From: Fidelibacterota bacterium
GTDB taxonomy: Bacteria; Fidelibacterota; Marinisomatia; Marinisomatales; JACNKV01
Direction of reading: 5' to 3'
Length of the DNA: 64,000 nt
Assembly (NCBI GenBank): GCA_014381855.1
Contig: JACNKV010000035.1
Coordinates: forward strand, 16,080 to 80,079
In this document: positions 26,434 to 36,950 of the stretch, piece after piece
Position numbering within the stretch: the stretch's first letter is position 1
How the letters are laid out: each line of letters starts with the position of its first letter
Program-made: the position numbers and the translations under genes
Notes under the pieces: generated by a model
What the model saw: the letters and a program-made list of their open reading frames with translations, nothing else
Told to the model about the DNA's origin: nothing
The model's database searches: none

Positions 26434-28299
26434 ATGAAACAAATTAAATTAATAATTAAAGTCCTGCTATTAATCGTAGTTATTGAATCAAACCTCTTCG
26501 GTAACGTACTTCCCGATTGGGCGACGGATGCTGTGTGGTATCAGATATTTCCTGAGAGGTTTAATAATGGAGATCACGCAAACGATCCAACGTTAGCAAG
26601 TACCGTAGGAACATGGCCTTGGCAACATTCTGAGACGTGGAACGTATCACCGTGGACATCTGATTGGTACACCTTTCAGCAATGGGAGGTAGAAAATGGG
26701 AAAGATTTTCGGTACCAATTCCAGCTCCGGCGATACGGAGGTGATTTACAGGGGATCATTGAAAAATTGGATTATCTCCAAGAGTTAGGTGTCAATGCGA
26801 TTTATTTAAATCCGGTATTTGATTCGCCTTCATCTCATAAATACGGAGCGGCAACCTATCATCATATTGATCGACATTTTGGCCCGGACCCTGAAGGTGA
26901 TACCAACATTATTCAATCAGAAAGTCCAAATGACCCATCAACCTGGAAATGGACTTCAGCTGATAAATTATTTCTGCAGCTCGTCGAAGAGGTGCATCGC
27001 CGGGAAATGCATATCATTATAGATGGTGTATTTAATCATGCAGGATTAACATTTTGGGCATTTCAAGATGTCATAGAGAATCGGGAAAAAAGTTCGTACT
27101 ATCATTGGTACTCCATTGATGGAAATGGAATGGAAGACCATTCACATTTGAATGATTATAGAGACTTGCCATCTCAATTTAATCCGGATGGATATCCTCC
27201 TTTACGATATAAAGGGTACGTAGAAGATCTTCCTGCTTTTCGTCAGAACGAAGACGGTCCGGTTAAACCTGTTCGTGAGCACTTTAAGGAAATTGTTCGT
27301 CGTTGGATGGATCCGAACAATGATGGAGATACTTCTGATGGTATTGATGGATGGCGTTTAGATGTCGCCGAACGAATACAAATGTCGTTTTGGGATGAAT
27401 TTTGCGGCTGGGTGAAAGTGATAAACCCGAATGCATACATTACCGGGGAAGTCTGGTGGGAAGACTGGTGGAATAACAAACAATTTAATGCGTCTCCTTG
27501 GCTGAAAGACGGTCGTTTTGATGCCGTGATGAATTATCGATTTGGTGATGCAATGTTCAAGTATTTTATTGACCGGAAAAACCAGATTACTCCATTTGAA
27601 CTGGATATATTGCTTCAACAGGTCAGGGATGAATATCCCCCAAATACGGCTTACGTCTTGCAAAATTGTCTTGGAAGCCATGACATGGAAAGACTTGCCT
27701 CAGCGGTTGTAAATCCAGACAGATTGATAGACCATGCAAACAATACATGGTGGAATAAGGAATTTGACATCCGAAAGCCAAACTCCAAGCAGCAACAGAT
27801 TCAAAAGACAATCATTCTGTTTCAGTTTTCGTATTTGGGAGCACCCTATATCTATTATGGAGATGAAGTAGGAATGTGGGGAGCAGATGACCCGGATTGT
27901 CGCAAACCCATGGTGTGGTCTGAATTTTCTTATGAAAATGAAACCGCACATCCTTGCGACTATTTGGCATGTATTGAAACTAGGCCTGAAGATCGTGTGA
28001 TGGTTGACAAAGATTTATGGAAATATTATCATGATTTGATTGACCTTCGCCATAAACATCCATCCTTGAGACGAGGGAATTACAAGACAGTTTATACAAA
28101 TAGTGAAGGTCTCTTCGTCTTTCAGAGACAGCAGGATAATGAAATAATTATATGCGCATTTAATGGCTCAAACATTCAACAAACAATCCCAAATATTGTT
28201 TTTGAGGGCAAATTTGAAAATTGGTCCATGATATTTGGGGATGATTTTAATAAACAACTTCAAGCAAAATCAGGAAAACTATTTAAAAAGAAATTATGA
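26434..28299 (+). CDS. secreted GH13 enzyme (neopullulanase/cyclomaltodextrinase-like)
   Basis: Signal peptide present. AVWYQIFPERFNNGD, GGDLQGIIEKLDYLQELGVNAIYLNPVF, IIDGVFNHAG, GWRLDVAERI, TGEVWWED and LGSHDMER motifs. Confidence 0.9.
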   Translation: MKQIKLIIKVLLLIVVIESNLFGNVLPDWATDAVWYQIFPERFNNGDHANDPTLASTVGTWPWQHSETWNVSPWTSDWYTFQQWEVENGKDFRYQFQLRRYGGDLQGIIEKLDYLQELGVNAIYLNPVFDSPSSHKYGAATYHHIDRHFGPDPEGDTNIIQSESPNDPSTWKWTSADKLFLQLVEEVHRREMHIIIDGVFNHAGLTFWAFQDVIENREKSSYYHWYSIDGNGMEDHSHLNDYRDLPSQFNPDGYPPLRYKGYVEDLPAFRQNEDGPVKPVREHFKEIVRRWMDPNNDGDTSDGIDGWRLDVAERIQMSFWDEFCGWVKVINPNAYITGEVWWEDWWNNKQFNASPWLKDGRFDAVMNYRFGDAMFKYFIDRKNQITPFELDILLQQVRDEYPPNTAYVLQNCLGSHDMERLASAVVNPDRLIDHANNTWWNKEFDIRKPNSKQQQIQKTIILFQFSYLGAPYIYYGDEVGMWGADDPDCRKPMVWSEFSYENETAHPCDYLACIETRPEDRVMVDKDLWKYYHDLIDLRHKHPSLRRGNYKTVYTNSEGLFVFQRQQDNEIIICAFNGSNIQQTIPNIVFEGKFENWSMIFGDDFNKQLQAKSGKLFKKKL

Positions 28300-35907: not shown

Positions 35908-36950
35908 AGCATCCATCTATAAGACAAAAGAGACTGTTTCTTCCGATAATTTCAATGTTCATAGTTTTTGCGTGGACAAATCCTTTATTATCTCAATCAG
36001 TTTCTAAAGTAGGCACAACTGCCAGTCAGTTTTTGAAAATTGGCGTGAGTTCACGTCCACTATCCATGGGCGGAGCATTTACTGCCGTTGCAGATGATGT
36101 GTCTGCTTTGTACTGGAATCCCGCAGGGATTGCCGGACTTGATAAAGTGCAAGTGTTGTTCGATCATACTGAATGGTTTCAAGATATAGATTATGAATTT
36201 GTTGGCGGGTTAATTAATCTTGGGACATACGGATCAATCGGAGCAACGATTTCCTATCTTCATATGAAAGAAATGGACGTAACGACGACACATCAGCCGG
36301 AAGGCACAGGAGAATCTTTCGATGCCGGATGCTATTCAGCCACGTTTACTTATGGGAAAAGAATCACAGATCGGTTCTCACTTGGATTGACGACAAAATA
36401 TGTAAATGAATTCATCTATAACTCCAGTGCATCCGGTTTTGCGATGGATATTGGAACAAAGTATAATACGCGGGTTGAGGGCTTAGCTTTAGGAATGAGT
36501 ATATCCAATTTTGGGACTAAAATGCAGATGTCAGGGAGAGATTTAATTATCCAAACTGATTTGGACCCAACATTAGAATCAGACCCCGAGCATGTAAATG
36601 CTTATTTAGACACTGATGAGTTTGATCTCCCTCTCCTTTTTCGGTTTGGCATTGCATACAAATTTCAATTATTGCACCGTAATTTGAATATTACGTTAGC
36701 AGCAGATGCCAATCATCCAAATGATAATACTGAAAGTTTAAATATTGGGACAGAAATAAATATAGCAAACATGGTGTTTTTACGCGGTGGAATCCAACAT
36801 TTATTCCAACGAGACGCTGAAGAACAATTTGCATTAGGTGCTGGAATTAAAATCCACATGGGTGGTTTCATTATGGTTGTTGATTATGCTTATCATGAAT
36901 TTGGCAGATTAGGCTCACCCCAGAAAATCACTATTTCTCTTATCCAATAA
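35904..36950 (+). CDS. PorV/PorQ-family outer-membrane beta-barrel protein
   Basis: Signal peptide followed by [40 protein letters not shown], which I recognise as the PorV/PorQ-type N-terminal signature. The remainder has an alternating beta-strand pattern. Its start overlaps the giant ORF stop (ATGA). Confidence 0.75.
   Translation: [348 protein letters not shown]

Follow-up and report, generated by a model that had tools for sequence, protein, structure and literature searches.

A conserved cassette of a TonB-dependent receptor, an unnamed giant protein and a PorV/PorQ-family barrel in an alpha-glucan locus of a Fidelibacterota bacterium

The gene chain and its products

We analysed a 64,000-nucleotide stretch of DNA from a Fidelibacterota bacterium (contig JACNKV010000035.1; the whole stretch is called the window below), in which four genes are chained on the plus strand from 26434 to 36950, inside a large alpha-glucan locus. 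They encode a glycoside hydrolase family 13 (GH13) enzyme, a TonB-dependent receptor (TBDR), a giant protein of an unnamed family and a barrel of the PorV/PorQ family. Our analysis showed that the last three genes form a conserved cassette and not a local oddity. This trio is probably the outer-membrane core of an alpha-glucan import module that is independent of SusD and resembles a polysaccharide utilisation locus (PUL), and would be one instance of a cassette widespread in phyla of the Fibrobacterota-Chlorobiota-Bacteroidota (FCB) group outside Bacteroidia. The features of the chain are as follows.

26434-28299, plus strand: GH13 enzyme, heading the chain, with a stop codon that overlaps the start of the TBDR gene (ATGA)
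28296-31688, plus strand: TBDR of 1,130 aa
31708-35907 (alternative start 31675), plus strand: giant of 1,399 aa, unnamed family
35578-35904, plus strand: C-terminal domain (CTD) of the giant, a beta-sandwich of the kind used by the secretion system of type IX (T9SS)
35904-36950, plus strand: PorV/PorQ-family barrel of 348 aa; its start overlaps the giant stop (ATGA)

An initial annotation, made from the sequence alone, had already proposed this four-gene chain; its open reading frames (ORFs) were found where it placed them, and both of its ATGA overlaps, at 28296-28299 and 35904-35907, were seen in the sequence. It had allowed two starts for the giant, 31675 or 31708. The latter ATG, which the TBDR stop (31686-31688) precedes by 19 nt, is most likely the start, since the 1,399-aa product is 100% identical to a hypothetical protein deposited from a Candidatus Marinimicrobia metagenome-assembled genome (MAG) and the N-termini of homologues align there; a length of 1,399 aa rather than 1,410 aa is thus favoured. 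The same locus has been independently assembled from several samples. Other gene callers choose later starts, M14 in the TBDR and M18 in the barrel, but the overlapping starts are more plausible because the later ones strip the charged n-region from otherwise normal signal peptides. A promoter and terminator scan returned sites no more numerous than in shuffled sequence.

The TBDR has a signal peptide and matched the Pfam models CarbopepD_reg_2 (67 bits), Plug PF07715 (32.2 bits, cut-off 23.9) and TonB_dep_Rec_b-barrel PF00593 (68.3 bits, cut-off 27). It ends in GIHVKF, with F as the terminal residue, and a TonB-box-like sequence, EEVVVVAKR, lies between the CarboxypepD_reg-like domain and the plug. 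Sequence matches in the Protein Data Bank (PDB) were limited to generic plug regions (YncD, PqqU). Against the SusC/RagA model TIGR04056 it reached 48.2 bits, the cut-off being 368.25, and matched over residues 26-231 only; the best E-value on this model among 49 cassette TBDRs was 5e-31. By these model scores, the receptor is a TBDR of generic type, outside the SusC/RagA family, so that its earlier description as SusC-like holds for the order of its domains only. Just past the plug, residues ~255-370 form an Asp/Asn/Gly-rich thrombospondin-type-3-like insert (EDLNGDGQWD...DANENGIFDAGEPLNNDLGTDG). Outside the closest relatives, TBDR homologues align mainly from residue ~350-430 on and appear to lack this insert, which echoes an Asp-rich insert in the giant of the same clade.

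The giant had been left without a family assignment, and indeed nothing in Pfam, NCBIfam or the PDB sequences matched it, even when a profile of 66 sequences was used. A homologue search found more than 3,700 relatives, all annotated as 'hypothetical', and an exhaustive profile search gave 1,354 clusters at 50% identity (E<=1e-30). Alignment of 13, then 66 homologues revealed the layout of the protein. Residues 1-28 are a signal peptide with no lipobox Cys, and residues 29-615 are a conserved all-beta body rich in Ca motifs, with invariant Trp, Asp and Glu, DGIDNDGDG- and DDNLNGLIDE-type motifs and a mean pairwise identity of 56% (50-56% between cassettes for different glycans). These are followed by an FN3-like domain (616-775; 55% mean pairwise identity), a 195-aa Asp-rich disordered insert (~831-1025; 16% Asp) found in only about a quarter of homologues, a variable beta-sandwich region (1026-1290; 24-31% identity) and a divergent T9SS-type CTD (1291-1399), which is the most conserved part of the protein (64% mean pairwise identity). 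Asp makes up 11.4% of the whole protein. The earlier statement that the giant is studded with DxDxDG motifs was overstated, as there are 2 strict DxDxDG and 4 DxDxD motifs. Many family members, P0254, P0263, P0270 and P0273 among them (P and L numbers are our handles for proteins and loci), match the giant profile only from position ~430 on; therefore a sister subfamily apparently has different or very divergent first ~400 residues.

The giant was modelled with AlphaFold2 (AF2) as two overlapping parts. The model of residues 1-790 (pLDDT 82.7, pTM 0.84) is nearly all-beta, with low confidence in the loop region of the Ca motifs, and that of residues 600-1399 (pLDDT 76.6) comprises the FN3 domain, further beta-sandwiches, a disordered insert at ~821-1016 and a beta-sandwich CTD. 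Whether the giant has a SusD-like or other well-characterised fold had been named as a test of its proposed role, and neither was found: no SusD/RagB sequence model matched, the AF2 models are almost entirely beta, the N-terminus is without the lipobox Cys, and fold searches with the models returned no solved structural relative. PorZ (5m11) ranked 4th in the fold search. A PorU-like sortase, considered for the porU-porV gene order, was rejected on account of the lack of a C25/PorU match, the multiple copies and the PUL linkage.

The best Foldseek matches of the giant, all weak, were to beta-supersandwich regions of GH94, GH149, dextran dextrinase, PL26 and beta-1,2-glucanase. These matches bear on an alternative explanation, under which the giant would act enzymatically at the surface, as a new hydrolase or lyase, glycan-active or otherwise; the TBDR would take up its products, and the barrel would do no more than anchor or export it. 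Dozens of Asp, Glu, Trp, Arg and His positions in the body are invariant across phyla, as might be expected of an enzyme; however, many of the invariant acidic residues sit in DxDxD/TSP3-like Ca-binding motifs, the TM-scores to any enzyme are ~0.2, the matched parts are non-catalytic sandwich domains, and no catalytic family model matches the giant.

The CTD-like segment reported earlier at the end of the giant was borne out by profile comparison. Five other proteins with canonical CTDs are encoded in the window, and hhalign of the giant CTD profile against the profile of these five gave a probability of 93.6% (E = 2e-7). The giant CTD alone weakly matched the CTD regions of PorZ and PorU (E = 0.016 and 0.036), which are the two T9SS proteins with retained CTDs, bound to PorQ and PorV. 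It differs from canonical CTDs in a conserved insert (~18 residues, IAGASWEGQNPYATGRGP; invariant pattern WE..NPY..GRGPR..HF.HLP) and in its ...GKFAVIK-type end. AF2 predicted it as a beta-sandwich at high pLDDT except for the inserted loop (1301-1318), which is of low confidence. This special CTD is present in most of the full-length homologues collected: 108 fit the strict motif, and nearly all other full-length tails listed have the CTD too, with variant end residues. Judged by its sequence, the giant is likely to be a T9SS cargo.

The barrel scored 198.3 bits on the PorV/PorQ family model NF033709 (cut-off 90), in agreement with its earlier designation as PorV/PorQ-like, and its only PDB sequence match was PorV 6h3i (E = 1e-5). 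It stayed below the equivalog cut-offs for PorV (NF033710, 66.5 vs 250 bits), PorQ (NF033711, 86.6 vs 220 bits) and PorV2 (84.4 vs 325 bits). All 56 of the 56 cassette barrels matched NF033709, PorQ, PorV and PorV2, with a far stronger best E-value for NF033709; bit scores on these models are known for the barrel of the window only, and the other barrels were compared by their best E-values. Three cassettes occur in one MAG, and each comes with a barrel of its own. The possibility that a general porV merely sits at this locus, raised in the initial annotation, is not supported by these results, and by its model scores the barrel is a cassette-specific paralogue and not the general PorV.

Conservation of the cassette across genomes

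A pattern scan of one genome per species revealed at least 505 loci that encode a relative of the giant, and 80 of these were examined with 10-kb flanks. A TBDR adjoins the giant in 65/65 assessable loci (64 by script, directly upstream, and L024 by ORF inspection). The PorV-like barrel adjoins in 60/66 loci and lies within 2 kb in 2 more, further downstream (L009 and L069); it is absent in 4/66 even by family profile search, though the giant there has the special CTD. In 56 of the scored loci the genes stand as TBDR-giant-barrel and in 6 as TBDR-barrel-giant, with L024 as a seventh of the latter kind by ORF inspection, and the median intergenic gap is 12 nt. Thus the adjacency of receptor, giant and barrel, whose conservation had been put forward as a test, is upheld. 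The loci are from genomes labelled in the MAG records as Marinimicrobia, Fermentibacteria, WOR-3, Stahlbacteria, Calditrichota, KSB1, Ignavibacteria/Melioribacteraceae, Gemmatimonadetes, Fidelibacterota and unclassified 'Bacteroidota'.

Several MAGs carry two or three cassettes. In MAG JAFGGN01, the first cassette is accompanied by LacI, a protein with carbohydrate-binding module 9 (CBM9) and a mannanase-GBD, and a GH26-CTD protein (mannan), the second by a GH10-CTD protein (xylan), and the third by CE2 and a beta-helix CTD protein. An alpha-glucan version is repeated in a distant lineage (L088, a 4.7-Mb contig), with CBM20-CTD, symporter, TrmB, GH13, SurA-like peptidyl-prolyl isomerase (PPIase) and GDSL/TPR genes. 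Two tandem cassettes (giant, barrel, TBDR, giant) were observed in a Calditrichaeota MAG (L025:9836-20948). Among the neighbours of cassettes, a T9SS CTD was found in 27/79 downstream and 18/67 upstream, and LacI regulators in 16/67; other common neighbours are CBM20, GH13, CBM9, GH26, GH94, sugar-binding proteins, symporters and esterases. A PUL in the strict sense is a susC/susD pair with carbohydrate-active enzymes (CAZymes), and the locus has neither a SusC-family receptor nor a SusD. What it has are the marks of a PUL-like TBDR-centred CAZyme locus, namely a receptor, substrate-specific CAZymes and a sugar regulator, with several paralogous loci per genome.

In two full-length homologues of the giant, P0228 and P0229 (48-49% identical along the entire length), the CTD is a canonical one of type A; NCBI names both 'T9SS type A sorting domain-containing protein'. 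Their loci (L085:8001-11567 and L087:8001-11519) are mannan loci with four GH26 genes, GH5, GH2, CBM35 and GH3, and neither a TBDR nor a PorV-like barrel adjoins them. A complete cassette (L053) is found ~25 kb away from L085, on the same contig of 616 kb. Such homologues, standing among GH26, GH5 and GH2 genes without a TBDR, are what would be expected of a secreted enzyme; against catalysis on a specific substrate, the same conserved body occurs with alpha-glucan, mannan and xylan enzyme sets. Together with the structural matches described above, we consider it unlikely that the giant is itself an enzyme.

Partial Mantel tests were carried out on 50 complete cassettes; they are exploratory and ignore phylogenetic non-independence. 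The CTD of the giant co-varied with the barrel given the TBDR at r = 0.41, and with the TBDR given the barrel at r = 0.18. For the N-terminal body, the values were r = 0.53 with the TBDR given the barrel and r = 0.00 with the barrel given the TBDR, and for the middle region 0.54 and 0.15, respectively. Because no other part of the giant is as conserved as the CTD, P0228 and P0229 are without barrel and TBDR, and the partial Mantel values are asymmetric, we infer that the CTD would dock on the cassette barrel and that the body would work with the TBDR.

The same data bear on whether the barrel may be a channel of the FadL type, or a paralogue serving as a generic T9SS shuttle, that does not anchor the giant, the three genes being co-regulated without forming one complex. 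The PorV family consists of FadL-fold barrels, the barrel of the window weakly matched Toluene_X and BamG, the BamG model was also weakly matched by 19/56 cassette barrels, and there are the four loci with a special-CTD giant and no adjacent barrel. However, a barrel is adjacent or near in 62/66 loci with very short gaps, the CTD tracks barrel divergence better than the rest of the giant does, and the giants with canonical CTDs are without a barrel. Moreover, PorV/PorQ barrels are known to hold CTD proteins at the surface in the PorU-PorV and PorZ-PorQ pairs. Holding of CTD proteins by barrels of the PorV/PorQ and SprF types is also documented (PMC10994853). A barrel that is no anchor is thus improbable, somewhat more so than an enzymatic giant. 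On the sequence evidence, we lean slightly towards the barrel tethering the giant, whereas a direct partnership of the giant with the TBDR is possible and falls a little on the doubtful side.

The alpha-glucan surroundings in the window

The chain is flanked by further genes of the alpha-glucan locus, of which the following adjoin it.

25502-26311, minus strand: TrmB-family sugar-specific transcriptional regulator (Pfam TrmB, 64 bits, and Regulator_TrmB), divergent from the operon
37112-40357, plus strand: non-catalytic starch-binding protein with X25/CBM48/CBM20 modules and a canonical T9SS type-A CTD
40502-41806, plus strand: SurA-like PPIase (Pfam Rotamase, SurA_N_3)
41810-43771, plus strand: protein with a GDSL-like hydrolase domain and C-terminal TPR

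The GH13 enzyme at the head of the chain has a signal peptide (N-terminus MKQIKLIIKVLLLIVVIESNLFG) and matched Pfam Alpha-amylase with 178 bits. Its closest NCBIfam models are maltodextrin glucosidase and cyclomaltodextrinase, both under cut-off, and it is probably a periplasmic enzyme that degrades maltodextrin or cyclodextrin. GH13 genes are also directly upstream of the TBDR in L002, L049, L067 and L069. Elsewhere in the window there are four more GH13 proteins, two of them with T9SS CTDs, as well as a GH13-HAD fusion, GH77, a phosphorylase and a sodium:solute symporter. The initial annotation had noted no SusD-like gene in the window, and no SusD/RagB Pfam match was found by us in any ORF of at least 150 aa.

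The starch-binding protein at 37112-40357 gave a faint precomputed match to CBM_1st_SusF, and its orthologues follow the cassette in L001-L008, L030 and L044. It is likely to be a surface alpha-glucan binder analogous to SusE/F, and it is a closer SusE/F analogue than the giant. Its gene contains a perfect 1,427-nt tandem direct repeat (37172-38598 and 38624-40050) with a spacing of 1,452 nt (484 codons), in frame, which doubles the X25/CBM48/CBM20 block. The duplication is either polymorphic or an assembly artefact, since a second assembly of this locus (L082) encodes a version of 571 aa in which the block is present once.

The SurA-like PPIase recurs beside cassettes in several phyla (10/79 downstream neighbours; also L024:13890-15395 and L088:5782-7152) and may be a dedicated periplasmic chaperone for large outer-membrane proteins. 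GDSL/TPR proteins of 635-705 aa accompany the alpha-glucan cassette with one copy in the window and three upstream of the cassette in L088 (L088:1-5785), and GDSL was found in 4/67 upstream neighbours of cassettes.

Recurrence of the PPIase is one point for a further alternative, under which the trio serves the envelope, the T9SS or outer-membrane biogenesis in general, or imports a nutrient other than a glycan, and stands in the alpha-glucan locus by chance. The high conservation of the giant likewise resembles that of core machinery, and the models that match the TBDR are limited to generic siderophore, B12 and PqqU ones. Against this, several cassettes occur per genome, each with different CAZyme neighbours, and in L025 they stand in tandem; the GH13 stop overlaps the TBDR start, GH13 is directly upstream in four other loci, and LacI or TrmB sugar regulators adjoin. 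We regard a chance placement as very improbable, and a PUL-like role of the trio as very likely.

Other genes of the window were observed as well. A protein with CotH kinase-like and lamin-tail domains and a T9SS CTD is encoded at 7207-9534 (minus strand), and a CotH/LTD/CTD protein like it is encoded after a xylan-type cassette of another phylum (L066:14760-18044). The GH13-HAD protein (18915-22043, minus strand) is a 1,042-aa fusion of GH13 with a C-terminal HAD-superfamily hydrolase; it adjoins a short (558-aa) phosphorylase-family protein and GH77, an unusual cytoplasmic set for alpha-glucan processing. At 52161-64000 (minus strand), a standard dcw cluster (ftsZ, ftsA, ftsQ, murB, murC, murG, ftsW, murD, mraY and a murF-like gene) borders the glycan locus.

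Proposed function and comparison with known systems

In the import module that we favour, starch or pullulan would be bound and cut at the surface by the CBM20/48-CTD protein and the GH13 enzymes with T9SS CTDs, whose CTDs suggest export to that location. The giant would leave the cytoplasm through Sec by its signal peptide and then cross the outer membrane through the T9SS by its divergent CTD. The CTD would stay uncleaved and bound to the PorV/PorQ-type barrel of the cassette as a dedicated carrier and anchor, for which PorU-PorV, PorZ-PorQ and type-B CTD/SprF provide precedents, and the body with the variable middle region would lie next to the TBDR or on top of it and hand oligosaccharides on to it. 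Maltooligosaccharides would then be imported by the TBDR with TonB energy and trimmed by the periplasmic GH13 enzyme encoded upstream, and the sodium:solute symporter, GH77, the phosphorylase and the GH13-HAD fusion could complete the pathway. The locus would be regulated by TrmB. That the trio forms a physical complex and binds glycans is what we infer from these findings.

Several points weigh against this interpretation. Partial Mantel tests are prone to false positives for sequences related by descent, the barrel is missing from four loci whose giants have the special CTD, and the type-A CTD models TIGR04183 and PF18962 gave no direct match to the giant at E<=0.01. The giants with canonical CTDs have no adjacent TBDR, and the body can therefore function apart from the receptor. 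The phylum span is read from the taxon labels of the MAG records. Finally, the giant body is highly conserved across cassettes for different substrates, so that its role is possibly other than glycan binding.

The last point concerns the initial annotation, which had proposed a surface complex for glycan capture and import with the giant in the role of SusD/E/F. The conserved PUL-like unit is supported by the gene adjacencies (65/65 and 60/66), but the role assigned to the giant is not, as its body is conserved across glycans and the CBM20/48-CTD protein is closer to SusE/F. An identity of 50-56% between cassettes for different glycans is odd for a substrate-specific binder of the SusD/E/F type, and the body therefore probably has a generic role, such as docking on the TBDR, gating it or serving as a Ca-dependent scaffold. 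Glycan specificity probably resides, as far as sequence variation indicates, in the variable middle region of the giant and in the accessory CBM-CTD protein or proteins.

More broadly, and tentatively, we propose a phylum-spanning class of TonB-dependent glycan importers, in which a T9SS-exported partner of 1,100-1,400 aa with a new fold would be held permanently on its own PorV/PorQ-type barrel by a specialised uncleaved CTD, and which would serve Marinimicrobia, Calditrichota, KSB1, Ignavibacteria, WOR-3 and relatives as their principal gateway for polysaccharides. In oceans, sediments and reactors, Marinimicrobia (SAR406), Calditrichota, KSB1, Ignavibacteria and their relatives are abundant and degrade organic matter, and they are mostly without SusD; the cassette is a concrete candidate for moving polysaccharide fragments across the outer membrane in these lineages. 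The giant family is large, yet has no name, Pfam model or solved structure. If the proposal is true, the PUL concept extends past SusC/SusD, complexes for nutrient uptake use PorV-family barrels as fixed anchors, a new role for these barrels and a third mode of T9SS carrier anchoring, and a three-gene marker becomes available for annotating glycan-utilisation loci in uncultured FCB bacteria.

We found no description of the TBDR-giant-barrel cassette in the open-access literature, nor any experimental description of such a complex, as the initial annotation had supposed. A 2013 paper on Melioribacter roseus lists 'SusC, SusD, SusE' (Mros0761-0759) in the same order, between GH13 and CBM48 pullulanase genes; they may be this trio, their names perhaps being positional. 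A second homologue search gave proteins from MAGs only.

Similar to SusC/SusD (RagA/RagB), the cassette has a TBDR with an N-terminal CarboxypepD_reg-like domain encoded beside a surface partner, and its loci, present in multiple copies, also contain substrate-specific CAZymes, a sugar regulator and proteins that bind glycans at the surface. However, its receptor fails the SusC/RagA model, its partner is an all-beta protein of 1,100-1,400 aa with a signal peptide whereas SusD is an all-alpha TPR lipoprotein of ~550 aa, and it has an obligatory third gene, the PorV-like barrel. SusD is also far less conserved across substrates than the giant.

In PorU-PorV and PorZ-PorQ, a large surface protein with a retained CTD sits on a 14-strand barrel of the PorV/PorQ family, and porU and porV are neighbouring genes. 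The cassette is alike in that a CTD protein is encoded beside a barrel of this family and its CTD weakly matches those of PorZ and PorU. It is unlike them in that the giant body matches neither the PorU (C25 sortase) nor the PorZ model, the pair is multi-copy, PUL-linked and always accompanied by a TBDR, and the barrels stay below the PorV/PorQ equivalog scores.

PorV binds type-A CTDs via its extracellular loops, and type-B cargo stays on alternative dedicated carriers (PMC10994853). The type-B CTD/SprF system (SprB-SprF of Flavobacterium johnsoniae) shares with the cassette a specialised CTD class and a dedicated carrier barrel encoded beside its cargo, and cargo of the SprB type stays attached. 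The carrier of the cassette, however, is of the PorV/PorQ and not the PorP/SprF family, the CTD of the giant derives from type-A-like sequences, and the cassette is linked to nutrient import and not to gliding. In the machinery for beta-barrel assembly (the BAM complex) of Bacteroidota, the FadL/PorV-like 14-strand barrel BamG is a fixed platform that holds a large extracellular protein beside another barrel (PMC12578637). BamG-BamH differs from the cassette in belonging to a machine for outer-membrane protein assembly, in having a lipoprotein and not a CTD protein as the partner, and in that BamG is essential and present in one to three copies per genome, just one of which belongs to BAM.

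SusD-less TonB-dependent loci are also present in Proteobacteria (Caulobacter MalA, Xanthomonas CUT), where an oligosaccharide TBDR is accompanied by glycoside hydrolases and a regulator. Import of oligosaccharides by a TBDR without SusD, with glycoside hydrolases and a regulator, would be common to these loci and the cassette, but they have no conserved giant partner, no PorV-like barrel and no T9SS. Compared with all these systems, the cassette would combine TBDR-centred glycan loci with T9SS carrier-anchoring around a new protein family.

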